Assembly: GCA_964419335.1 (NCBI GenBank) | Contig: CAYQOX010000023.1 | Span: 2,946 to 66,945, forward strand | Reading direction: 5' to 3' | Source of the DNA: an uncultured bacterium | GTDB taxonomy: Bacteria; Hinthialibacterota; Hinthialibacteria; Hinthialibacterales; Hinthialibacteraceae | DNA: 64,000 nucleotides | Part shown: one piece after another, positions 22,883 through 32,469 of the stretch | Position numbering within the stretch: position 1 is the stretch's first letter | Layout: each line of letters starts with the position of its first letter | Position numbers and translations under genes: made by a program | The notes under the pieces: model-generated | What the model was told of the DNA's origin: nothing | The model's database searches: none | Seen by the model: the letters and a program-made list of their open reading frames with translations, nothing else

Positions 22883-23995
22883 ATGATGAAAATACCTCGC
22901 AGCAATCGTAGAAATGTTTTCGAATATTATGCGATTACCACAGATGTGAAATTGTCCTCTTTCCTTGCTACGATGCATAACATAAGTCAAAGCGGAGCTC
23001 TACTAAAAGTATTTGGCGAATTACTTATTGAAGAACACATTTATGCATGTCCAATCAAAGACGAAGAAACGGATGATCTCCCCACCCCTGATAAAATTGT
23101 CCACCATCCCCATGTTATAAGCGGAACCGTGGTACGCAAAGAAGGCATGGATAGTTATGGCATCCAATTTGAACATCCCACACACGAGGGAACCCCAGCC
23201 AGTTACCAAAAAACAACTTCCTCACGGTCAACAAGTTGGGAAAGTGAAGAAAATGGGTATACCATAACCTTACGCTTAAACAATACCCCGGATCTTTCTA
23301 CTCTTATCCGCTTTCGCGATACCCTAAGAGAGCAATCACATCATTTTCTTCACATGCTTCTAGATTTCTCTCACTCAGGAAAATTGCCTACGATGGGATA
23401 TGCGATTTTGGGTGAAATGCTGGAAGATCTTGCCGAAGCCAACTATCGAATAGCCTTGGTTAATGAAAACGCATTTGGGAATACGTTTCTTAAGAAATTT
23501 CAATACTCAAACCAAATCCACTTTTTTGATCAGGAAGAAGAAGCCCAAAAATACTTAAATCAACACGCCCTCAAAGCAGTCATCATTGATGATGAAGAAA
23601 CCACATTGCAATTGATCAACGCTTATCTCCAAAAACGAGGTTTCCAAGTTTTTTCTTTTAAAGATGCTGAACAAGCTCTTCCCCAATTAGAGAAACATCA
23701 ACCCGATATCATTCTCATGGACATTCATCTCCCCGGGATGAATGGTTTACAGGCTACAAACGAAATTCGCAACAATCACCAACTCCAACATATCCCCGTA
23801 ATCATACTCACAGGAGAATCACACCGGCAAATGGTTTCAGAAAGCATCCGTCTGCAGGTCAATGACTATTTACTTAAGCCGCTTGATTCGCACAACCTCA
23901 TGCATAAAATCATTTCGGTATTAAAACAAAACGAGAATTCCGAGAATTCCGAGAATCGAACCTTAGAAGACCGTCCATTTTTTAATTCCCATTGA
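22883..23995 (+). CDS. three-domain signalling protein: PilZ - STAS (anti-sigma-antagonist-like) - response-regulator receiver
   Basis: PilZ motifs RSNRR (RxxxR) and NISQSG (NxSxxG) 22 aa apart. Central ITLRLNN...LLDFSHSGKLPTMGYAILGEM...ALVNENA is STAS-like. C-terminal VIIDDEE...ILMDIHLPGMNG...DYLLKP is a canonical REC. Confidence 0.85.
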   Translation: MMKIPRSNRRNVFEYYAITTDVKLSSFLATMHNISQSGALLKVFGELLIEEHIYACPIKDEETDDLPTPDKIVHHPHVISGTVVRKEGMDSYGIQFEHPTHEGTPASYQKTTSSRSTSWESEENGYTITLRLNNTPDLSTLIRFRDTLREQSHHFLHMLLDFSHSGKLPTMGYAILGEMLEDLAEANYRIALVNENAFGNTFLKKFQYSNQIHFFDQEEEAQKYLNQHALKAVIIDDEETTLQLINAYLQKRGFQVFSFKDAEQALPQLEKHQPDIILMDIHLPGMNGLQATNEIRNNHQLQHIPVIILTGESHRQMVSESIRLQVNDYLLKPLDSHNLMHKIISVLKQNENSENSENRTLEDRPFFNSH

Positions 23996-24122
23996 TATAA
24001 GCCAGATAGAACCCGTATCCGAGATTGCCCTGCCTTCGCTAGGCATGTATCCTGTCCATAGACAATCATACAAAATGGATATACTTGTTTCCCAAATCGT
24101 CATTCATTGTTGGATGGGAATT

Positions 24123-27100
24123 ATGAACCAACCTTATAAAGCCATACAAAACATTGGAATCGATACCAAAGATTTCAAGCGTCGATTGAAATTTCTTGAT
24201 TTGCAGGAAGATGACCTACAACGCATTCGTCAACTTCGCATCCCTCTGCAAAAGATTATCCCTGAATTAATTGACACTTTCATCTACCATCTTCTCTCTT
24301 ATAAAGAGACCCAGGGATTTATTACCAACACGGAAACGTTGAATCGCATAAAAAAAAGCCTTCACTATTATTTCCTTACCCTGTTTTCGGGAGAATATGA
24401 TGATGAGTATCTTAACCACCGTATCAGCGTAGGATTAGCTCACGAGTTCATCGGTGTTAAACCCAGTCTCTACATTGCGGCCTACAATAAAATCATCTCA
24501 CTTGTTACCCAATATGTTATTACCCATTACCAAGAAAATCCCTTAGAGGCAAAGGCTGCGGTTCAATCACTCCAAAAAGTTTTTTCCCTCGATATGCAAT
24601 TGGCAATCGATACCTATAACCAAGCCAATAAGCATACTCTTTTGATCATGAAAGAGTTTGCTGAACATATCAATGAAAACATTCCCTCGGCATTGGTCGT
24701 ACTGAACGAAAACAAAAAGATTATCTCGAGCAATTCTGCTTTCCTTGACCTACTCTTTCAAATTCTTCCGAATCTTCCTAGCCACTACAACCAGTCCAAC
24801 TTAACCGGTGAAAACATCGATACCTTTTTTCCGGATCCAGTCATTTCATCCAACATTGAAAAGATGATCCAAAAAGGCCACACCCAAGATAAATTTTATA
24901 CCACCTTTCAGCAAGAAAATAAGCCCATCTATTTTTTGGTTTCCATGACCAAAATGATGCATGGACAACAATACAGCAATGAAATCCTCGTGGTAATGGA
25001 AAACATCACCGATTTACGGAAAGCCGAACAACAAATTAAAGAACAAAAAGAACTTCTGGAAAATACAATTAAATCCTTAACCCATCCCTTCTTTGTTATC
25101 GATGCGAAAGATCATTCGATCAAAATTGCCAATCCCGCCGCTGGAGGAAACAATCCAGAAGGTCTTCAACCTTGTTACTTGCTGTCCCACGATCACAATA
25201 TGCTCGGGCAAGACCCTGAGATGCTAAGTCCCATTGAACAAATTCGAAAAACAAAAACCCCCATAGAAACAGATCACATTCATTTTAATCAAGAAGGACG
25301 CCCCCGTTATTACGAAGTCCATGGATACCCGATTTTCGATGATCAGAACGAAGTGCAAATGATCATCGAATACTCGCTGGATATCACCGAACGCAAAATG
25401 GCAGAGGATGCACTCCGTGAAAGCGAAGCCAAAATGCGCTCTATCCTGCGCACTGCGGTGGACGGAATTCTGACCTTCAGTGATGATGGCATCATTGAAA
25501 CTGTAAACCCGGCGGCGGAATCGATGTTCGGCTACACCCAAGATGAAATTCTGGGAGAGAATATCGAACGTATTATGCCTTCGATTGCTTTTATGCGCCA
25601 TAAAGAATTATGCATGGTCGCCCGCGATCCTTATCAAAAATTTGGTTTCAGCACCGAGGGACTTGCTTGGCGTAAAGAGGGGACCTTCTTCTGTATGGAA
25701 ACCACCATCGGCGAAATGCCATTCGGTGACCATATTATATATACTGGAGTCATTCGAGATATCACGCAACATAAAAAATCGGAAGAAGAATTAATTAGGG
25801 CAAAAATCGCTTCCGAAGCCGCAAATAAAGCTAAGAGCGAATTTCTTGCAAATGTGAGTCATGAAATTCGCACCCCCTTAAATGGCATCATCGGTTTAAC
25901 CGATTTGCTCTTCCAAACTCAACTCAATACCGAACAGCATCATTACTTGGAACTGGTGAAGCAATCTTCTGAATCACTCCTGACCATCCTCAACGACATC
26001 TTAGATTTCTCCAAAATTGAAGCCGGCAAGTTGGAGTTCCACCCTATTGAGTTCAACTTCATCGATATGATCTTTGAAACCGCGAATGGGTTATCCATGC
26101 AAGCACACCAAAAAAACCTTGAACTCCATGTGATGCTGGATCCTCAACTCCCACTGTATGTCGTTGGCGACCCGGGACGGTTACGCCAAATCATGATCAA
26201 CCTCGTTGGGAATTCGATCAAATTTACTCAAGAAGGGGAAATCCTATTGCGCGTTGAACTTGATTCTCAAAGGAACTCCGAGGCAACTCTTTTGTTCTCA
26301 ATCTGCGATACAGGTATGGGTATTACACAAGAAAAACAAAATCTGATTTTCAACGCGTTTGAACAAGCGGATACATCAACCACTCGCCAATTCGGCGGCA
26401 CAGGATTAGGCTTGGCGATTTGCTCACAATTGGTGCAACTCATGGATGGGACAATTTGGGTAGAAAGTCCCTGGAAAGAGCGGCCGGCTTCTGCCTCCGG
26501 CGGCTTGGGGAGTAAATTCCAATTTAGCATACACTTGAAATCCCCTCATCGGAATACTCTGCAAACCTCCTATTCTGTACCTGAAAATTTGAAACCTATT
26601 TCGCTTCTCGTAATAACCCAAAGCCCGACCCTACGCATGCTATTACAATCTCAGTTTAACGAATGGGGAATCCATTCCGAGTTTGTCGATGGAAAAGAAG
26701 CGGCCCTAAGCCGGCTCAAACCCACTAATCAGGAGAAACAAGCCTTCTCCGCCGTGCTGATTGATCATCATATACCCAACCTGGATGGATTTACCCTCTT
26801 AGAAGCAATGAAATCTCATGAGAGATTCGAAGAGCTTCCAATGATTCTTTTGAGCAATAATTTAGAAAAACGAACAGCCGAGTTTCTTGGTCATTATGAT
26901 TATTGTTCGATTTTAATAAAACCGTTCAATCCCTATGAGCTCCTCGATCATATCCGTCATATGGGTCTTATCGATCAGCCTTTCGACACCCCACATTGGC
27001 CCCCTACGAGAGAGATTGAACCTGAGCCGGAAACACGTTATCACATTCTCATCGTCGAGGATAATGAAATTAATCTTACCTTAATTCGCCAAATCTTAGA

Positions 27101-27815
27101 GAAACGGGGTCATACTTATCGCCTTGCCCACAATGGAGAAGAAGCCCTCGAATGCATTCGTACAGAACCCTTTGATCTAGTCCTCATGGACATTCAAATG
27201 CCCATCATGGATGGAATTACAACAACCCAAAAAATCCGAGAGATAGAAAAAGAGACGAGAACTCACCTCCCAATCGTAGCCATGACCGCCTACGCCATGA
27301 AAGGAGATCAAGAACGTTGCCTAGAAGCAGGGATGGATGATTATATTCAAAAACCAATCCGAGCTGATCTCATACTAAAAACAATCCACAATTTACTCGA
27401 ACGAATTTCTCATGATGAAAACGAAGTGGCCCCCAGCACAACAAGAAAACAGATTTTGAACTCCAAGGAACTTTTGGATCGGGTGGAATATGATTACAAG
27501 TTATTGCAACAAATCAGTGACCTGTTTTTCGAACAATACCCACACCTTATGCAAGAGATCGAGAAAGGAATACTTAACAAGAAGTGCAAGGAGCTTCACT
27601 ACGCAGCTCATACCCTCAAAGGTTTATTGAGCAACTTTTCCGCAGAAGTCGCTTTCGAGATAGCGGCCGAATTAGATGAGTATGCAAAAAGAGAAGATTT
27701 CCCAAAAGCAGGAACTACAGTAGAAATTCTCAAGAAAGAAATACAAAACCTTATTCCTGAGCTTACAAAGATGTTGAAGACCTTAAAAGACAAAAAAGAT
27801 TGTAGTTCAGAATAA
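24123..27815 (+). CDS. hybrid sensor histidine kinase: globin-coupled sensor - PAS - PAS - HisKA/HATPase - pseudo-REC - REC - HPt
   Basis: N-terminal protoglobin-like domain (FIYHLL distal Tyr region; GLAHEFIGVKPSLYIAAY aligns with HemAT IHVKIGLEPKWY proximal His). H-box SHEIRTPLNG. N/G boxes. REC HILIVEDNE...LMDIQMPIMDG...KP. HPt AAHTLKG. ORF open from 24045. Confidence 0.9.
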   Translation: MNQPYKAIQNIGIDTKDFKRRLKFLDLQEDDLQRIRQLRIPLQKIIPELIDTFIYHLLSYKETQGFITNTETLNRIKKSLHYYFLTLFSGEYDDEYLNHRISVGLAHEFIGVKPSLYIAAYNKIISLVTQYVITHYQENPLEAKAAVQSLQKVFSLDMQLAIDTYNQANKHTLLIMKEFAEHINENIPSALVVLNENKKIISSNSAFLDLLFQILPNLPSHYNQSNLTGENIDTFFPDPVISSNIEKMIQKGHTQDKFYTTFQQENKPIYFLVSMTKMMHGQQYSNEILVVMENITDLRKAEQQIKEQKELLENTIKSLTHPFFVIDAKDHSIKIANPAAGGNNPEGLQPCYLLSHDHNMLGQDPEMLSPIEQIRKTKTPIETDHIHFNQEGRPRYYEVHGYPIFDDQNEVQMIIEYSLDITERKMAEDALRESEAKMRSILRTAVDGILTFSDDGIIETVNPAAESMFGYTQDEILGENIERIMPSIAFMRHKELCMVARDPYQKFGFSTEGLAWRKEGTFFCMETTIGEMPFGDHIIYTGVIRDITQHKKSEEELIRAKIASEAANKAKSEFLANVSHEIRTPLNGIIGLTDLLFQTQLNTEQHHYLELVKQSSESLLTILNDILDFSKIEAGKLEFHPIEFNFIDMIFETANGLSMQAHQKNLELHVMLDPQLPLYVVGDPGRLRQIMINLVGNSIKFTQEGEILLRVELDSQRNSEATLLFSICDTGMGITQEKQNLIFNAFEQADTSTTRQFGGTGLGLAICSQLVQLMDGTIWVESPWKERPASASGGLGSKFQFSIHLKSPHRNTLQTSYSVPENLKPISLLVITQSPTLRMLLQSQFNEWGIHSEFVDGKEAALSRLKPTNQEKQAFSAVLIDHHIPNLDGFTLLEAMKSHERFEELPMILLSNNLEKRTAEFLGHYDYCSILIKPFNPYELLDHIRHMGLIDQPFDTPHWPPTREIEPEPETRYHILIVEDNEINLTLIRQILEKRGHTYRLAHNGEEALECIRTEPFDLVLMDIQMPIMDGITTTQKIREIEKETRTHLPIVAMTAYAMKGDQERCLEAGMDDYIQKPIRADLILKTIHNLLERISHDENEVAPSTTRKQILNSKELLDRVEYDYKLLQQISDLFFEQYPHLMQEIEKGILNKKCKELHYAAHTLKGLLSNFSAEVAFEIAAELDEYAKREDFPKAGTTVEILKKEIQNLIPELTKMLKTLKDKKDCSSE

Positions 27816-27860: not shown

Positions 27861-30443
27861 CTAGCCGAGAAGCTGCAAGAATGTCTGGCTCTGGAAGTTG
27901 GCTTGGGCTAAAACAGAAGTTCCCGCCTGTAACAAGACTTGATTGAGTGTAAACTTCGAGGTTTCTTCAGCAATGTCAGCATCCCGAATCCGAGATTCAG
28001 ACGCCGTTAAGTTTTCCGAAGCCACACTCAAACTCGATACAGTAGATTCTAACCGGTTCGTAGCCGCACCGAGAATCGAACGAGTACGGTTCACCTGATC
28101 CAAGGCTTCATCCACGATTTTTATCGCCTCATTCGCGCCTTCTAAGGACGTCACATCAATATCCTGAACCGTTCTACCACTATTTCGGCCAAAACCGAGG
28201 TTATCCGCTTTTAAATCACCTATAGAAAACTGGATGTTTTGATCACTGAACGCCCCAATTTGAAAGTTAAGTCCAGTATTTACAGTTGAAATTACGGTTG
28301 TGATGCCTGTATCTTCTGCGGTACCACTGGAAGTTACATTAACAAACGAATCAAAGTCCACTGTAACAAAATTCGCTGTCTTACTACTCGTACTGGGCGT
28401 AAAGAACACCACATCCTGCTCACCGGGTGAAAAGGTGACCCCAGCACCTCCGTTTAATGTACCGACATATTCGTTGGGTACATTCTCGAATTTGTCATTA
28501 CCACTCGTAAATCCACTACCTACCCGTAAAGTAACCTGAGGCGTAGGCACCCCTTCGATCGTGGATTCCTGTCCTTTAAGGGTGATCACGTCACCTGCTT
28601 CGGCTCGAACTTCTTCCCCTCCATCGATTTGGAAAGTGGCCTGTTCGGCATATCCTTCCTGAGTTAGTTCTGCATCATCTTGTAAGGTGAAATATTCCGT
28701 TGGAGTTGAGGAATCACTATTTTGGAAGGTGAGCGTGAAATTCATTTTTGAATCAGAACGCCCTACATCATCAATAAGTTGGAGTGCCCCTCCGGGTGTA
28801 TACGTGAAGATCGCATCATCGAAGCGTGTTTGGTCACCATTCGTAGCCGTACCTGACTCATAATTCCGCGTACGGAAATTCAGTTCCTGAATCAAACCGG
28901 AAATCGTGGCAAACTTAAAGTCGTTAAAACTTGTATCTACCTCCTGCAACTCAGTGTCATCATCAGGATTGACGTAAGTGAAGCGTCCTTCAAAGGTACT
29001 CCCGTCCGCGTTCGTTCCTGTCAGTACAATCATATCATCATCGCGAAGGGTCTGTCCGCCTGTGTAATTACTTCCCACAAAAGAGCCGTTCAACACGACC
29101 GTATTAGAAGCATTTGTCGCACCTAAAGTGGTGGAACGATCCAACCGTGTTCCATTACCATCCAGAAACGCGATCGTACTGGTAACCTTCCGTTGTTGGG
29201 CCTCTTGCACATCTTTCACGGTGATGTTGAATTGTCCTTCTTGAAATGTTGAACCGGTGATCGCTGTTACTGCATTCCCTACTTGGCCACCTCCGGAAAG
29301 CGCCGAATCCGCTCCGATCGCTCCGGAGCGTGTTACACCATTGGCGTTGGTTACGAGATCGCCACTCCGGAACAAAGATAGATTGATGTTGGATTGATTG
29401 ATATGATTCCCTTCGCCGATCATTAACAAACGCCCCCGGTTATCTCCCGTTTCACTCGCCAGGGTAACGGTAGTACGATAAGCCGTGGGTACACTGCCTG
29501 TGGTATTCACTCCAAACAGGTTCTTTTCGGCTTCATCGATCGCCCGATTAACCGCCGCCACAACATCGGGGGGATTGGTTGAGGAGGCACCGGCTGATGT
29601 CCCAATGGTCGTGCTATCACCGATGGTTAATGATCCGGTAAACTTGGTCACTCCATCCGCCAATACGCCTTCAAAGACAAGCACGTCATCTCCTGCTCCC
29701 GAAACCGATACTCCATTAAAGAAGAAGTCATCACCAGAAACATCGGACCCGGTAGTTAGAGCATTTCCGCCAAACGAACGCTGATCTGTAAAAGCGGCTA
29801 AAGAAACAGCTACATCGGTTTGATTACTGATCCCTGTATTGACGATCTGCTGTCCCCCGGCTTGATCACCAGCCACTACTTGAGCATGCCCAATTTGGTT
29901 GAGTCGGATATTTAAAAAAGCCGTCCCGCTGTCCAGCGAGCTAGCCACAGGAGAGGCATCAATATCAAAACCGTAATCAGGTTGACCTTCTTTAAACTCC
30001 GATTTAATGGAGAAATCTCCATTCAGTAAATGGTTACTGCCAAACAAAGTGGTATTGGCGATTCGAGTGATTTCGTCAATACTCTGAAACACTTCGTCCT
30101 GAATGGCAGAACGCGCTTTGAAATCATTGGTCCCGGTGTTGGCCGCTTGCAGTGATAATTGACGGATACGGTTTAAACGGTTGGTGGTTTCTTCCAACGA
30201 TCCTTCGGCAACGTTAATCAAGTTAATACCATCTTGAGCGTTCGTAACCGCTTGATTCAATCCCTGCGTCTGTGAGCGTAAGCGGTTTGCCACACTAAAT
30301 CCCGCTGCGTCATCCGCCGCTCGGTTGATACGCAAACCAGAGGAGAGGCGTTCGATGGCTTTCTCTAAATTGCCACCGATTTGGCTCATGTTTCTCTGGG
30401 TTGTGATTGCAGATATATTTGTATTAATACGAGTGATTCCCAT
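27861..30443 (-). CDS. fliC: flagellin with very large (~600 aa) central hypervariable region
   Basis: 860 aa. N-terminal D0/D1 (INTNISAI...LSSGLRINRAADDAAG...AQDGINLINVAEG). C-terminal D1/D0 (LGAATNRLES...ESRIRDADIAEE...LLQAGTSVLAQAN). AAGGAGGA SD 5 nt before the ATG. Confidence 0.94.
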   Translation of the reverse strand: MGITRINTNISAITTQRNMSQIGGNLEKAIERLSSGLRINRAADDAAGFSVANRLRSQTQGLNQAVTNAQDGINLINVAEGSLEETTNRLNRIRQLSLQAANTGTNDFKARSAIQDEVFQSIDEITRIANTTLFGSNHLLNGDFSIKSEFKEGQPDYGFDIDASPVASSLDSGTAFLNIRLNQIGHAQVVAGDQAGGQQIVNTGISNQTDVAVSLAAFTDQRSFGGNALTTGSDVSGDDFFFNGVSVSGAGDDVLVFEGVLADGVTKFTGSLTIGDSTTIGTSAGASSTNPPDVVAAVNRAIDEAEKNLFGVNTTGSVPTAYRTTVTLASETGDNRGRLLMIGEGNHINQSNINLSLFRSGDLVTNANGVTRSGAIGADSALSGGGQVGNAVTAITGSTFQEGQFNITVKDVQEAQQRKVTSTIAFLDGNGTRLDRSTTLGATNASNTVVLNGSFVGSNYTGGQTLRDDDMIVLTGTNADGSTFEGRFTYVNPDDDTELQEVDTSFNDFKFATISGLIQELNFRTRNYESGTATNGDQTRFDDAIFTYTPGGALQLIDDVGRSDSKMNFTLTFQNSDSSTPTEYFTLQDDAELTQEGYAEQATFQIDGGEEVRAEAGDVITLKGQESTIEGVPTPQVTLRVGSGFTSGNDKFENVPNEYVGTLNGGAGVTFSPGEQDVVFFTPSTSSKTANFVTVDFDSFVNVTSSGTAEDTGITTVISTVNTGLNFQIGAFSDQNIQFSIGDLKADNLGFGRNSGRTVQDIDVTSLEGANEAIKIVDEALDQVNRTRSILGAATNRLESTVSSLSVASENLTASESRIRDADIAEETSKFTLNQVLLQAGTSVLAQANFQSQTFLQLLG

Positions 30444-30448
30444 GATTT

Positions 30449-30491
30449 TCCTCCTTGAGGGGATTCACGCATAGCATCCCATGCATGCGTG
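30449..30491 (-). promoter_or_regulatory. flagellin 5' leader: hairpin presenting GGA in its apical loop plus GGA-containing SD (CsrA-type dual site architecture)
   Basis: mRNA sense is CACGCAU-GCAU-GGG-AUGC-U-AUGCGUG (30491-30466), then 9 nt, then AAGGAGGA (30456-30449). This resembles the two CsrA sites of B. subtilis hag. Confidence 0.35.
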
Positions 30492-30666
30492 TTCAGTGCA
30501 CATCTTTCCTCTCATCTCCCGAATGGGAATCGCTCAACCTTTTACCCCCACGACCGCATGCGGAGGCAAACTGTTGAATCGATTCTTCGAGAGTATCGAT
30601 TCTTATTAGCCAATGTTTTTGGAAGGAAAAATCAGGGAGGAAAATCCCCCTCTCTTACTTACTCCG

Positions 30667-30710
30667 TTGCAAGGTTTCCGAGGCCTTTTTCATGACGGGT
30701 GAAGTGGTTT
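30667..30710. repeat. conserved core element, copy 1 (44 nt)
   Basis: TTGCAAGGTTTCCGAGGCCTTTTTCATGACGGGTGAAGTGGTTT, identical to copy 2 at 30894-30937. Followed by T5. Confidence 0.9.
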
Positions 30711-30782
30711 TTCCCTTCCAGTCATTCGATAGAGATCTATCACCTCCTTTATAAAAATTTCATAAAGAATCGTACATTAAAC

Positions 30783-30810
30783 TTAAGTTTTTCAAGCGAT
30801 TTGCCGAAGA
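30783..30810 (+). promoter_or_regulatory. sigma-28 (FliA)-type promoter C
   Basis: TTAAGTTT-N12-GCCGAAGA versus consensus TAAAGTTT-N11-GCCGATAA (13/16). Confidence 0.45.
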
Positions 30811-30816
30811 TTAGGG

Positions 30817-30950
30817 ACAGATATGATATGACAGAGAAAACCCTGCACATTCTCTTGTCATCCTGGGTTAGATCGCTTTTCACCCCTCATAAATTGCAAG
30901 GTTTCCGAGGCCTTTTTCATGACGGGTGAAGTGGTTTAACCTTTTTTTTT
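30817..30950 (+). ncRNA. candidate sigma-28-dependent small RNA (module 2), about 134 nt, ends inferred
   Basis: Starts ~7 nt after promoter C. 10-bp SL1 at 30829-30860, conserved UCCUGGGUUA, long hairpin UUCACCC/GGGUGAA containing the core repeat, T9 run at 30942-30950. Confidence 0.4.
30861..30950. repeat. conserved element, copy 2 (extended ~90 nt)
   Basis: TCCTGGGTTAGATCGCTTTTCACCCCTC...core...T9. Aligns along its length with 31255-31345. Confidence 0.9.
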
Positions 30951-31030
30951 ATCCGCCCACGAGACTCAAAGCAAACGCCTAATTCATTTTTTATTTACCC
31001 AAAAAAAAATTTTGGCGTGTTCGTATATTA

Positions 31031-31057
31031 TTTTCGGCAGATTAAAGAAAACCTTAA
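31031..31057 (-). promoter_or_regulatory. sigma-28 (FliA)-type promoter D, oriented toward the flagellin gene
   Basis: Minus strand reads TTAAGGTT-N11-GCCGAAAA (13/16). Paralogous to promoter A (shared ATCTGCCGA). Confidence 0.45.
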
Positions 31058-31127
31058 ATAAAATTTTTCTTGACTTTTTCTGTTGGAAGAAAAGTTAATA
31101 TAAAATCAATCTTCGAGAGATAAACAA

Positions 31128-31160
31128 TAAAAAACCGTATCCCCTCGCACGGGATACGGT
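31128..31160 (-). terminator. intrinsic terminator (minus strand)
   Basis: Minus strand reads CCGTATCCC-gtgcgag-GGGATACGG followed by TTTTTTATT. Perfect 9-bp GC-rich stem. Confidence 0.7.
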
Positions 31161-31178
31161 GTAATTTGATCTTTCAAC

Positions 31179-31205
31179 TCAAGTTTGGCTCAAAATTGCC
31201 GATAA
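31179..31205 (+). promoter_or_regulatory. sigma-28 (FliA)-type promoter B
   Basis: TCAAGTTT-N11-GCCGATAA (15/16 to consensus). Confidence 0.55.
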
Positions 31206-31211
31206 ATAAGA

Positions 31212-31345
31212 ACATAGAACAAGGGTAAAACAAACCCTGTACGTTCTTTTGATTTCCTGGGTTAAATTGCTTTTCACCCCTCTCAATTGCAAGGTTTCCG
31301 AGGCCTTTTCACAAGACGGGTGAAGTGGTTTGACCCTCTTTTTTT
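31212..31345 (+). ncRNA. candidate sigma-28-dependent small RNA (module 3), about 134 nt, ends inferred
   Basis: Starts ~7 nt after promoter B. SL1 at 31216-31247, conserved UCCUGGGUUA, long hairpin with the core repeat, GGGUGAA-GUGG-UUGACCC hairpin plus T7 run at 31339-31345. Confidence 0.42.
31255..31345. repeat. conserved element, copy 3 (extended ~90 nt)
   Basis: TCCTGGGTTAAATTGCTTTTCACCCCTC...core (31287-31331, a few substitutions/indels versus copies 1/2)...T7. Confidence 0.9.
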
Positions 31346-31432
31346 AACCCATTCAACCAAGAACCTCTCAGAGTTCTCACCCTTCGCACCTGAAGGATTC
31401 AAGAATGAGTATTTCTCCTTCTTCGTCTTTTA

Positions 31433-31459
31433 CTATCGGCAGATAAACCCGAAACTTTA
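31433..31459 (-). promoter_or_regulatory. sigma-28 (FliA)-type promoter A
   Basis: Minus strand reads TAAAGTTT-N11-GCCGATAG (15/16, perfect -35 element). Confidence 0.6.
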
Positions 31460-31543
31460 GAAGAATTTGTATTTTTTTCCTTAACCTTTTAATCTGCCTG
31501 ATTTAATTAAATTTATAAATGACCTATTTCCTCAAAAAAAATC

Positions 31544-32395
31544 TCATCCTAAAAATTCAATAAATTTGCGAGTAATTTCCCCCTCTTTTACCTTACAAAT
31601 AAAATATCCCTTTTCCTCACTTCCATCATGATTTCCTCGACTATAAGAGAGGCAACGGTTGGTGGTGAGTGGAATCTCATTCCACCGCTTCAATGTAAAT
31701 CCATGAAAATGCCCGCTATAAATCGCTTTCACATTACAATCCACCAATAAGTTTAAAACTTCATCGGCATTTTTAGGCCGCATCGGTGTCTCTTCACCCA
31801 TGGGAAAATGAGTAAAAACAATCATAGGCTTTTTAGAATCATTCTCATCAATTGTCTTTCTTAACCATTTCAGGCTATCTTCTTGAATTTGAGTATCTTT
31901 ATAACGGGGACCATCACATGAATCCAATCCCAATAGAGTCCACCCCTTCACGTGCTTTACATAATTCCGAGAGTTGGGAAAAATCTCTTCGTACACCCCG
32001 CACGACTCTCCATCAAAGTCATGGTTCCCCGGGACCACGTAAACAGGACATGGCATAGCCTCCATAATTTCACGAAATGGTTTTAGTTCATGTTCTTTTC
32101 CATCGGTAGCGAGATCCCCAGCGACAAGGCAAAAATCCAGTTTCTCGTGGCGTGATTTGATCCATTTCACCGCCTTTGTTAAATATTCCCCACAACGTTC
32201 ATCGCGATAATGGGTATCATTGATAATGACATACTGTAGATCATCCCCTTTTTCGTCAAAAGCCTGCGCTGCGATTGCACCCGGCCATAATCCGGCTGCG
32301 AGAACCCCATGCAATCCATTGCGCAAAAATTCACGACGTGACTTGCCAGCAGAGAGTATGCGCTTCTTGTATTCCTTCATTAATAAACCTTTCAA
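31544..32395 (-). CDS. calcineurin-like metallophosphoesterase with twin-arginine signal
   Basis: 283 aa. SRREFLRNGL...AQA TAT signal. DTHY, GDLATDG, GNHD and GHFH metallophosphoesterase motifs. Confidence 0.85.
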   Translation of the reverse strand: MKGLLMKEYKKRILSAGKSRREFLRNGLHGVLAAGLWPGAIAAQAFDEKGDDLQYVIINDTHYRDERCGEYLTKAVKWIKSRHEKLDFCLVAGDLATDGKEHELKPFREIMEAMPCPVYVVPGNHDFDGESCGVYEEIFPNSRNYVKHVKGWTLLGLDSCDGPRYKDTQIQEDSLKWLRKTIDENDSKKPMIVFTHFPMGEETPMRPKNADEVLNLLVDCNVKAIYSGHFHGFTLKRWNEIPLTTNRCLSYSRGNHDGSEEKGYFICKVKEGEITRKFIEFLG

Positions 32396-32469
32396 TTTGT
32401 TTTTATCAGATTTACAACTTAAAACTTAATCTACAATAGTAAAACAACGAGCATTCGAATCCAGGCTGA

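Follow-up and report, generated by a model that had tools for sequence, protein, structure and literature searches.

On balance, our comparative analysis suggests that the long untranslated leader region preceding the flagellin gene of an uncultured Hinthialibacterota-like bacterium holds two genes of an undescribed family of antisense sRNAs, ~130 nt long, that would be placed under sigma-28 in a feed-forward arrangement and would pair with two sites of the leader. The architecture is kept in 13 related genomes, which argues for a real RNA family, and the antisense RNA probably tunes flagellin production. Throughout, the window denotes the whole stretch of DNA that was analysed, 64,000 nucleotides in length. 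A preliminary description of this DNA had pointed out four sigma-28 boxes in two convergent pairs and had read them as a duplicated cassette driving an excludon-like circuit. The boxes stand, and so do a conserved convergent pair, box D as the flagellin promoter and a plus-strand RNA, while the excludon reading does not fit and the duplicated cassette is not the conserved state.

Sigma-28-type promoters and the flagellin leader

The flagellin gene and the predicted promoters upstream of it, with matches to the sigma-28 consensus, are as follows:

27861-30443, minus strand: giant flagellin gene from the ORF list, 860 aa, Flagellin_N and Flagellin_C with a large middle domain
31459 to 31433, minus strand: box A, sigma-28-type promoter, TAAAGTTT-N11-GCCGATAG, 15/16
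31179-31205, plus strand: box B, predicted sigma-28-type promoter of sRNA-B, TCAAGTTT-N11-GCCGATAA, 15/16
30783-30810, plus strand: box C, predicted sigma-28-type promoter of sRNA-C, TTAAGTTT-N12-GCCGAAGA, 13/16
31057 to 31031, minus strand: box D, predicted sigma-28-type promoter of the flagellin mRNA, TTAAGGTT-N11-GCCGAAAA, 13/16

The protein belongs to a stand-alone 'MGITRIN...TAQRN' orthologue group, with homologues (52-75% identity, 830-883 aa) in MAGs labelled Omnitrophota or Hinthialibacter. All four boxes were recovered at the positions and with the match counts first reported for them, and all have the features of the sigma-28 class: a TAAA(GTTT) -35 element and a GCCGATAA -10 element, the two octamers being 11-12 nt apart. 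The facing pairs, described as ~230 bp apart, have their -10 boxes separated by 221 nt (C/D) and 228 nt (B/A). The N11 pattern with at most three mismatches has six matches in the 64-kb window against 0.95 expected, a number reached in none of 100 shuffles; three of the six fall within 430 nt, and boxes A and B are the best consensus matches of the window (one mismatch each). For the N12 pattern there are three matches against 1.02 expected, and box C alone is not significant. It is credible only because its position is homologous to that of box B and of the antisense promoters of relatives, found in 12 other lineages. A fifth sigma-28-like box at 32403-32429 is devoid of the CGA core and is not conserved, and it was not counted. 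When 19 of the ORFs of the 64-kb window were scanned against Pfam, no fliA was found among them; csrA and fliW were also sought within the window and were not found there.

The view that box D faces the flagellin gene across a leader of ~580 nt is borne out, as all relatives share both the sense boxes and the initial transcript AUGACGACAACGG. Box D is thus supported as the flagellin promoter, with a predicted start near 31023 and a leader of ~580-590 nt; in the eight relatives measured the leader is 605-674 nt long. Sense boxes precede every orthologous flagellin, and similar boxes are present before fliD (L003, L023) and paralogous flagellins (L003, L021). Several elements of the leader can be delimited, all on the minus strand:

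30444-30458: Shine-Dalgarno (SD) region UCAAGGAGGAAAAUC before the AUG, of which CTCAAGGAGGA is invariant in eight leaders
30523-30535: segment GAGCGAUUCCCAU, predicted to pair with the start-codon region AUGGGAAUCACUC (30431-30443); inverted repeat I5
30533-30578: conserved hairpin with the near-invariant loop CAUGCGGUCGU, from the RNAalifold consensus, with several compensatory pairs
30632-30646: CU-rich anti-SD-like segment GAUUUUCCUCCCUGA, which may also form a small hairpin with the preceding GAGGGGGA
30739-30749: SD-like AAGGAGGUGAU, 11 nt and perfect, followed by no start codon (STAB-SD-like)

The SD region is complementary to the segment at 30632-30646 (inverted repeat I3, 93%), and most relatives have CU-rich stretches after the proximal core described below. 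Pairing of the GAUUCCC/GGGAAUC type at the start-codon region is kept in eight leaders, with changes from C-G to U-G on the sense strand. The SD-like AAGGAGGUGAU occurs once in the 64-kb window and is retained at the same position in 10 of 11 related leaders.

A search for the cassette in relatives, as proposed in the preliminary description, showed that up to 13 other lineages have the convergent pair in front of their orthologous flagellin locus. The common order is a sense sigma-28 promoter, an antisense RNA gene under a separate sigma-28 promoter, the SD-like AAGGAGGTGAT, a proximal copy of part of the RNA gene and the flagellin gene (lineages L001/L008, L004/L022, L005, L009, L011, L012, L013, L020, L024, L025, L026, L027 and L028, the L013 locus being cut by a contig end). 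SURF_12 and Ca. Hinthialibacter antarcticus are among the metagenome lineages with this architecture. Promoter boxes are kept on both strands, and the spacers and flanks vary. These comparisons support the convergent sigma-28-type pair as a conserved and selected feature of the orthologous flagellin leader. At every locus the sRNA gene lies between the sense promoter and the AUG, that is, in a cis-antisense position. A scan of 185,579 species genomes returned the element at one locus per genome, and it was not found at the paralogous flagellin loci L003, L021 and L023. A protein-based scan of metagenomes gave five loci: L020 carries the element, and the other four are paralogues or too short.

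The predicted antisense RNA and its two leader sites

The following features make up the predicted antisense system:

30818-30950, plus strand: sRNA-C, predicted, ~133 nt, MFE -42.9 kcal/mol, z = -4.05, covariance model (CM) score 108.5 bits
31213-31345, plus strand: sRNA-B, predicted, ~133 nt, a paralogue of sRNA-C, MFE -41.0 kcal/mol, z = -3.27, CM score 113.9 bits
30667-30717, minus strand: proximal core, duplicating the 3' half of the sRNA gene but lacking a promoter
31134-31160, minus strand: intrinsic terminator with a 10-bp stem (six G-C pairs) followed by UUUUUUAUUG, predicted to end the box-A sense transcript

In sRNA-C, a variable 5' stem-loop is followed by a long terminator hairpin, whose apical hairpin AAGGUUUCCGAGGCCUU is invariant, and by a U-run; the variable 5' part of the gene spans ~46 nt. 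Both plus-strand units close with a hairpin and a T-run (30941-30950 and 31338-31345), a feature overlooked earlier, and so the RNAs would be ~130 nt long and terminated rather than run-through. All sRNA copies measure 133-141 nt between the -10 box and the U-run. The earlier claim of fully overlapping antisense transcripts is not supported, since a short RNA with its own terminator would end ~70 nt short of the opposing start. The comparison with an excludon fails likewise, as the plus-strand units end after ~130 nt and no plus-strand gene follows. An excludon is a long antisense RNA that runs across a divergent neighbour and doubles as an mRNA for the next operon; the Listeria example comes from the flagellar mogR locus. 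In both cases a flagellar locus would be transcribed in antisense, but the RNA predicted in the window is ~130 nt long, terminated and non-coding.

Evidence for a structured RNA comes from its substitution pattern. The consensus sRNA hairpin has 22 pairs, for which 93.8% of the cells are paired across 14 sequences and seven pairs show double changes; none of 500 shuffles gave as high a covariation score, and shifting the register lowered the pairing to at most 60%. The structure belongs to the antisense strand: 227 of 241 cells pair (94%) on the plus strand as opposed to 170 of 241 (71%) on the flagellin-sense strand, substitutions yield 61 G-U against 4 A-C combinations, and the CM gives 53-120 bits for the antisense and no more than 30 bits for the sense strand. 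Module copies are followed by ~7.6 T per 9 nt and proximal copies by ~4.5, a comparison in which the window copies were put in the wrong class, yet are consistent with the trend. The terminator hairpin is unusually long and imperfect, and a simple terminator scan did not call it. In other words, the unit combines a predicted promoter of its own, a covarying structure and a stem with a U-run, as an independent sRNA gene would, which supports the view that the plus-strand boxes drive a structured antisense RNA.

Other roles for the conserved segment were also considered. In agreement with the earlier statement that the modules have no ORF in common, the two ORFs of the window that run across the core (30699-30929 and 31287-31460) lack colinearity, and linker indels of 1-5 nt between lineages break the frames; with no frame conserved, a small protein was rejected. 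A reading of the hairpins as terminators for a plus-strand gene was discarded too, as no such gene ends at the locus. A search of the whole window against Rfam 15 gave no match at gathering thresholds, and in a permissive search the best score was 23 bits against a threshold of 59, corresponding solely to the terminator at 31134-31160.

The two modules are indeed paralogous, as proposed, with 113 nt at 75% identity, 394 nt apart. In addition, there is a third copy of the 45-nt core, the proximal core adjoining the flagellin gene, which the preliminary description had overlooked together with the minus-strand terminator (31160 to 31134) between module A/B and promoter D. Given this terminator, box A is predicted to yield a sense RNA of ~295 nt that has no ORF, is a full complement of sRNA-B and stops at 31134. 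The modules clearly arose through tandem duplication of leader segments. The duplicated cassette, however, is not the conserved state: two complete modules occur solely in the genome of the window, whereas relatives have one pair and the promoter-less proximal copy. A dispersed repeat or MITE was rejected, because all three copies in the window are at this place and species genomes carry one locus each.

The proximal copy lies ~215-230 nt further along the mRNA than the sRNA gene. Its core offers, in the flagellin mRNA, a mismatch-free complement of 44 nt to sRNA-C and complementarity over 23 + 17 nt to sRNA-B, and there is a weak CM match at 30600-30717. In nine of 10 genomes the best match of the module core, among 11 proximal cores, is the proximal core of its own genome, and lineage-specific substitutions are common to the module and proximal copies. 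The proximal copy thus co-evolves with the sRNA gene, which implies that the sRNA keeps its complementarity to the mRNA at two sites: at the cis site complementarity is automatic, and at the proximal site (~45 nt) it appears to be maintained. Concerted evolution of direct repeats 220 nt apart could also result from gene conversion instead of selection for pairing.

Proposed mechanism and alternative explanations

If the antisense RNA is made as predicted, the flagellar sigma factor would switch on the flagellin mRNA and its antisense RNA jointly, forming an incoherent feed-forward loop. The apical loop of the sRNA might form a kissing contact with its complement, the loop at the proximal (and cis) site, from which pairing could extend over 45 bp or more. 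The resulting duplex would either be cleaved by a double-strand RNase or remodel the leader; in both cases the mRNA, with its start region otherwise sequestered, might change in stability or translation. Collisions of polymerases from promoters ~220 bp apart could contribute extra interference, and module A/B may supply a second dose of sRNA as well as a terminated sense decoy that titrates the sRNAs. When the sRNA footprints were masked in 11 folded leaders, the accessibility of the SD or the AUG did not change consistently, and therefore the direction of regulation is a guess; we think it more probable that flagellin output is damped on balance than that it is activated. RNAduplex searches with the variable 5' third of the sRNA revealed no site in the leader and start region that is common to the genomes. 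One might go further and see in the locus a self-contained flagellin timing device not known elsewhere, in which the antisense RNA acts through two kissing hairpins and the copy number of the module, which grows or shrinks by tandem duplication, sets the threshold; the window would then represent a three-copy state with a terminated sense 'sponge', and L005 a flagellin-less circuit with a function in trans. We regard this extension as speculative and somewhat doubtful.

Alternatively, the conserved hairpin might act on the sense strand. The hairpin AAGG-CCUCGGAAA-CCUU, present twice in the mRNA with a GGA loop, and the AAGGAGG motifs would then bind a flagellin-specific translational regulator, with CsrA/FliW as a model, and the antisense transcripts would be secondary or would solely mask the hairpin sites. 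Such binding would fit the 17-nt apical hairpin, which is identical in ~25 copies from 14 lineages; invariance beyond base-pairing needs hints at a protein partner or another target. It would also fit the GGA in the invariant sense loop and in AAGGAGGA at the SD, as well as the second AAGGAGGUGAU upstream. In C. jejuni, flagellin leaders are under established CsrA control via GGA hairpins (PMC4894983). However, the enclosing helix is maintained solely on the antisense strand, as the excess of G-U over A-C indicates, and both the U-run and the antisense promoter are conserved just where an antisense gene requires them. Moreover, the loop UCGGAAA differs from the usual A(N)GGA context, and the two hairpins are ~220 nt apart, which is far for one CsrA dimer. 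We consider a protein-binding leader of this kind unlikely. Pure transcriptional interference, in which convergent polymerases that meet in the 220-bp overlap collide or block one another and the RNA itself is functionless, would be in line with the distance of 221-228 bp between the facing promoters, similar in relatives, and with V. cholerae, where the cis-antisense MtlS and its target mtlA are reported to influence each other's transcription (PMC6597380). Yet interference needs neither a covarying hairpin nor a constant RNA length or a terminator, and it leaves unexplained the co-evolving proximal copy, which is outside the overlap; we think it improbable that interference is all there is.

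The same low probability applies to an activating role, whereby sRNA-directed cleavage trims the 5' part of the leader and a 30S subunit at AAGGAGGUGAU protects the mRNA, raising output. The model for it is cry3A, whose primary transcript (-558) is trimmed to -129 and protected by a STAB-SD-bound 30S (PMC4113751). A conserved 11-nt SD-like site with no ORF, which in the mRNA comes just after the cis duplex and before the proximal site, speaks for this role, as does its exposure by proximal-site masking in three of 11 modelled leaders. In the other eight the masking had no effect, and cleavage at the proximal duplex would delete the SD-like site, which precedes this duplex in the mRNA. The role would further presuppose a 5'-3' exonuclease (RNase J) in the clade. 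Finally, the modules might be non-functional relics, decaying remains left by tandem duplication and deletion of flagellin genes with their leaders, the plus-strand boxes being due to chance. This alternative, raised for the minus-strand units in the preliminary description, has some substance as to the origin by tandem duplication, and the weak full-length CM match of the proximal copy, the L005 leader retained with no flagellin ORF and the tandem flagellin paralogues of relatives all agree with it. As an account of the present state it is scarcely credible: 14 lineages, with flagellins only 58-75% identical and with diverged spacers, retain both promoter boxes, the RNA length, the helix with its compensatory changes and the U-run, the divergence of the flanks excludes very recent copying among loci, and boxes A and B match the consensus better than anything else in the window. 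A functional antisense sRNA thus remains the reading we prefer.

Significance and relation to known systems

To our knowledge, sigma-28-dependent sRNA control of flagellin has been described in only a few cultured proteobacteria and Campylobacter, with sRNAs that are trans-acting or UTR-derived, and Hinthialibacterota/OLB16 is a candidate phylum that has no cultured member. Here, comparative genomics alone delimits in this phylum a complete predicted RNA circuit absent from Rfam. It comprises an extended flagellin leader and, within it, an antisense sRNA gene that would respond to the same sigma factor, a co-evolving second target, a STAB-SD-like site and a sequestered start region. With ~700 nt the system is compact and could be moved to a model host together with its own sigma-28, where it would be usable for studies of same-sigma sense/antisense feed-forward and of convergent-promoter interference.

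The flagellar sRNAs reported in 2023 (PMC10578931) depend on sigma-28, as predicted here, and feed back on flagellin level and flagella number, some lowering and some raising output. They are, however, UTR-derived, Hfq-dependent and trans-acting through short seeds; none is a stand-alone antisense gene in a flagellin leader, and they have no sequence or structure likeness to the window RNA, which has no Rfam match. CjNC1/CjNC4 and FlmR (CJnc170) of C. jejuni are likewise paralogous sRNAs driven by sigma-28, with predicted pairing to the 5' UTRs of flagellar mRNAs, and they damp filament assembly (PMC4626219, PMC11187230). They are encoded away from their targets, which are sigma-54 class genes, whereas the sRNA gene of the window is inside the flagellin leader. 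In position, there is a parallel with V. cholerae MtlS, a convergent RNA of ~120 nt within the 5' UTR of its target mtlA with extensive complementarity to it; proximity matters for this regulation (PMC4615234, PMC6597380). MtlS covers the ribosome-binding site, and its expression is reciprocal to that of mtlA, whereas here both promoters are of the sigma-28 type, the AUG is 250-450 nt downstream of the predicted duplex and there is a second, co-evolving target copy. Another parallel concerns the SD-like site: the STAB-SD of B. thuringiensis cry3A (PMC4113751) also lies deep in a leader of ~560-590 nt, has no start codon and is complementary to the 3' end of 16S rRNA, but it comes from a different phylum, and in the window the counterpart is known from its sequence feature alone. 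For module A/B, with its terminated sense RNA and sRNA-B, the best analogue is the cis-encoded pair CJnc190/CJnc180 of C. jejuni, in which one RNA antagonises the other and the duplex is processed by RNase III (PMC8687705). That pair has no tie to sigma-28 or to the architecture of a flagellin leader, and a similar function of the A transcript is putative. Module A/B also illustrates that tandem duplication can expand regulatory RNA modules.

Promoter boxes and core copies in the window

The flagellin gene (27861-30443, minus strand, 860 aa) stands alone amid housekeeping genes, and a Pfam scan of 19 window ORFs found no further flagellar gene and no fliA. The preliminary description had placed four sigma-28 (FliA) boxes upstream of it as two convergent pairs, A/B and C/D, all of which are present in the sequence precisely as described:

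Box A, 31459->31433, minus strand, TAAAGTTT-N11-GCCGATAG
Box B, 31179-31205, plus strand, TCAAGTTT-N11-GCCGATAA
Box C, 30783-30810, plus strand, TTAAGTTT-N12-GCCGAAGA
Box D, 31057->31031, minus strand, TTAAGGTT-N11-GCCGAAAA

A search of the 64-kb window with the sigma-28 consensus (N11, up to three mismatches) gave 6 matches against 0.95 expected, a number reached in 0 of 100 shuffles, and boxes A, B and D are three of the six. Box C alone is unremarkable, as it requires N12 spacing (3 matches versus 1.02 expected). No sigma-70-like promoter was found in 30300-31700. One further sigma-28-like match (32403-32429, minus strand, TTAAGTTT-N11-TCTGATAA) lies directly upstream of a metallophosphoesterase ORF start at 32395; it has three mismatches, lacks the CGA core and is probably due to chance.

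The modules A/B and C/D, claimed to be paralogous, indeed share 75% identity over 113 nt at an offset of 394 nt. The block conserved in both comprises the plus-strand promoter, the ~125 nt after it and a T-run, and the stretch from the T-run to the minus-strand promoter is poorly conserved. Among the features that had been missed are a 45-nt core (plus strand, GCAAGGTTTCCGAGGCC...GACGGGTGAAGTGGTTT) with three copies in the window (at 30669, 30896 and 31289), of which the one at 30669, the proximal core, adjoins the flagellin gene, and a strong intrinsic terminator on the minus strand (31160->31134) that separates module A/B from promoter D.

Related lineages and the predicted antisense RNA

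Flagellins of 830-883 aa, encoded in MAGs that carry the labels Omnitrophota, 'bacterium' or Ca. Hinthialibacter antarcticus, make up the family of the window protein. SURF_12 and H. antarcticus fall within candidate phylum Hinthialibacterota (=OLB16), reported to encode flagella (PMC9324843). Scanning one genome per species (185,579 species) with the pattern CCCGTC-N3-16-AGGCCTCGGAAACCT returned seven real loci, every one in a MAG of this group, and six chance matches with no flanking similarity. Five of the seven carry two copies ~215-230 nt apart; at L012 divergence of one copy left a single match, and L013 is truncated where its contig ends. Flagellin homologues led, without use of the element, to the contigs L022, L024, L025, L026, L027 and L028, and a metagenome scan added L020; element-bearing lineages, window included, number 14.

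Wherever the flagellin N-terminus reads 'MG/A-I-T/N-R-I...TAQRN', the locus order is identical: sense sigma-28 promoter, 150-210 nt, core, ~95 nt, antisense sigma-28 promoter, AAGGAGGTGAT, second (proximal) core, ~245 nt, ATG. Looked for near the flagellin genes of relatives, as the preliminary description had proposed, the convergent pair is found in the same order at orthologous loci. Its duplication, which that description also noted, is present in the window, but among the compared lineages the second module, A/B, is confined to this genome. In the window 588 nt separate the sense -10 box from the ATG, and in eight relatives that were measured the gap is 605-674 nt, in agreement with the earlier view of box D as a flagellin promoter with a ~580-nt leader. 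Both promoters keep their boxes across relatives: on the antisense side the spacer and first transcribed bases vary, and on the sense side the spacer varies and a conserved transcript start, AUGACGACAACGG, follows.

The stretch that begins after the antisense -10 box and runs to the end of the T-run is 133-141 nt long in the 10 complete units that the first alignment contained. The unit alignment folds as a variable 5' part (~46 nt) followed by one long hairpin (helix P1/P2) abutting the U-run, with an invariant apical hairpin, AAGGUUUCCGAGGCCUU. Across 14 sequences, 93.8% of cells in this hairpin pair, 7 of 22 pairs have changed on both sides and 0 of 500 shuffles scored as high in covariation; sliding the register by one column lowers pairing to ~60%. 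The signal belongs to the antisense strand. Read on the window plus strand, the helix holds 61 G-U versus 4 A-C, 227/241 cells pair versus 170/241 on the flagellin-sense strand, and the covariance model scores 53-120 bits versus at most 30 bits. The T-run follows module copies and not proximal ones (~7.6 vs ~4.5 T in 9 nt), and on the sense strand an A-run precedes the hairpin, so that termination is expected in one direction only.

Since conserved boxes, a covarying antisense-strand hairpin, constant length and a T-run are hallmarks of an sRNA gene, we take boxes B and C to be the promoters for a pair of paralogous predicted sRNAs, sRNA-B (31213-31345) and sRNA-C (30818-30950), and D as the flagellin promoter. 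An excludon-like sense/antisense circuit had been suggested instead. We reject it because the predicted antisense RNA is short (133-141-nt unit) and ends at its own hairpin and U-run, as a terminated, structured sRNA would.

The element is absent from paralogous flagellins with an 'MSISRIV' N-terminus, three of which stand in a row beside flaG-fliD-fliS, without it, in L023 (same MAG as L009). L023 (138-10625), L003 and L021 encode several giant flagellin paralogues (830-880 aa) whose leaders lack the sRNA module; in L023 a methyltransferase gene lies between the first two tandem flagellins and flaG-fliD-fliS comes after the third. L005, a 2.6-kb MAG contig, has at 600-1300 both promoters (sense and antisense), the sRNA module, the proximal core and a hairpin like those of the leader, and no flagellin ORF; the unit ends at a terminator (~1232-1262). 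This terminator faces a convergent gene of the AIRS family, which in L024 and L028 comes after flagellin. In L005 the RNA circuit may have outlived its flagellin. In L001 (3348-3605) an 85-aa Ser/Gly-rich ORF that matches nothing in Pfam lies directly upstream of the flagellin leader. A perfect TAAAGTTT-N11-GCCGATAA (L008 3250-3276) precedes it and a strong terminator comes after it. Its product is an uncharacterised late-flagellar small protein; an FlgM-like role is our guess.

The proximal core and the rest of the leader

As the proximal core is oriented like the sRNA gene, its copy in the flagellin mRNA is complementary to the sRNA apical hairpin and 3' arm, over 44 nt without mismatch for sRNA-C and 23 + 17 nt for sRNA-B. 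It lacks the 5' arm, U-run and promoter, and a weak full-length covariance-model match betrays its origin as a duplicated module. The core linker and arm vary between genomes, with lineage-specific changes common to both copies within a genome: GACGAG (L024), GACGGAC (L025, L027), CCGCCTG (L028) and TTCGGCC (L026). In 9 of 10 genomes (11 proximal cores compared) the module core is best matched by its own genome's proximal core, often better than by any orthologous module. Whether selection or gene conversion drives this apparent concerted change, the predicted sRNA would be able to pair with the flagellin mRNA at a further site, in a duplex of 45 bp or more, for which the complementary apical loops (UUUCCGAGG versus CCUCGGAAA) would be the obvious nucleation point. 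Judged from these comparisons, the proximal copy appears to be a maintained target of the predicted sRNA.

Between the two sRNA-complementary sites lies an SD-like 11-mer (30739-30749, minus strand, AAGGAGGUGAU), a perfect complement of the canonical 16S rRNA 3' tail. No start codon or ORF follows this sole copy in 64 kb, and 10 of 11 relatives keep it at the equivalent place in their leaders. It is similar to STAB-SD, the stabiliser described for cry3A in PMC4113751, and may be a site of that kind or one for ribosome standby. Downstream (30533-30578, minus strand) is a covarying hairpin whose stem has compensatory changes in 8 lineages and whose 11-nt loop, CAUGCGGUCGU, is nearly invariant; it matches no known family. 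The segment GAGCGAUUCCCAU (30523-30535, minus strand) has its complement, AUGGGAAUCACUC (30431-30443), at the start and first codons of flagellin: GAUUCCC matches GGGAAUC of codons 2-3, a pairing kept in relatives through sense-strand G-U changes, which suggests start-site sequestration. Given also another covarying hairpin directly before the flagellin SD and, in the window, a CU-rich segment complementary to the SD, the start region seems to be sequestered and the leader to have the makings of a region for translational control.

Possible regulation and neighbouring genes

Sequence and comparison show a pair of sigma-28-type promoters that face each other, a predicted antisense RNA that is structured and terminated, and two complementary sites. 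Sigma-28 activity would start flagellin mRNA and sRNA together, an incoherent feed-forward loop in which the sRNA would pair in cis and at the proximal site, and the long duplexes would be cut by a double-strand RNase or the leader refolded. Polymerase collision over ~220 bp, of the kind that PMC6597380 reports for MtlS/mtlA, could add interference. We favour damping or delay of flagellin synthesis as the net effect; the main variant has the sRNA acting positively, by a kind of processing that involves the STAB-SD-like site, and thermodynamic modelling of the leader did not decide between damping and activation. Flagellin is modulated by sigma-28-dependent sRNAs in E. coli (PMC10578931) and in C. 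jejuni (PMC4626219, PMC11187230), and MtlS (PMC4615234) is a known case of a cis-antisense sRNA in a 5' UTR. What is new is the RNA family itself, the phylum, the apparent control of the two strands of a flagellin leader by one sigma factor type, the second site that co-evolves with the sRNA gene and the tandem expansion.

Module A/B adds another sRNA gene, whose promoter is near consensus, and a predicted ~295-nt sense RNA ending at 31134. This RNA might titrate the sRNAs, a role for which CJnc180/CJnc190 (PMC8687705) is the analogue. As it lies between the metallophosphoesterase stop codon (31544) and the sole terminator on that strand, it may also belong to the 3' UTR of that gene. At 31488-31507 (plus strand), TTTAATCTGCCTGATTTAAT is an inverted, degenerate copy of the promoter D spacer and -10 part (31027-31046; 80% complementary) and may be debris of the duplication that made module A/B. 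At the other end of the flagellin gene, genes for a PilZ-STAS-receiver protein and a 1256-aa hybrid histidine kinase (22883-27815, plus strand) converge on it with only 45 nt between stop codons; in L025 and L027 a PAS/HisKA kinase gene lies downstream of flagellin on the opposite strand.
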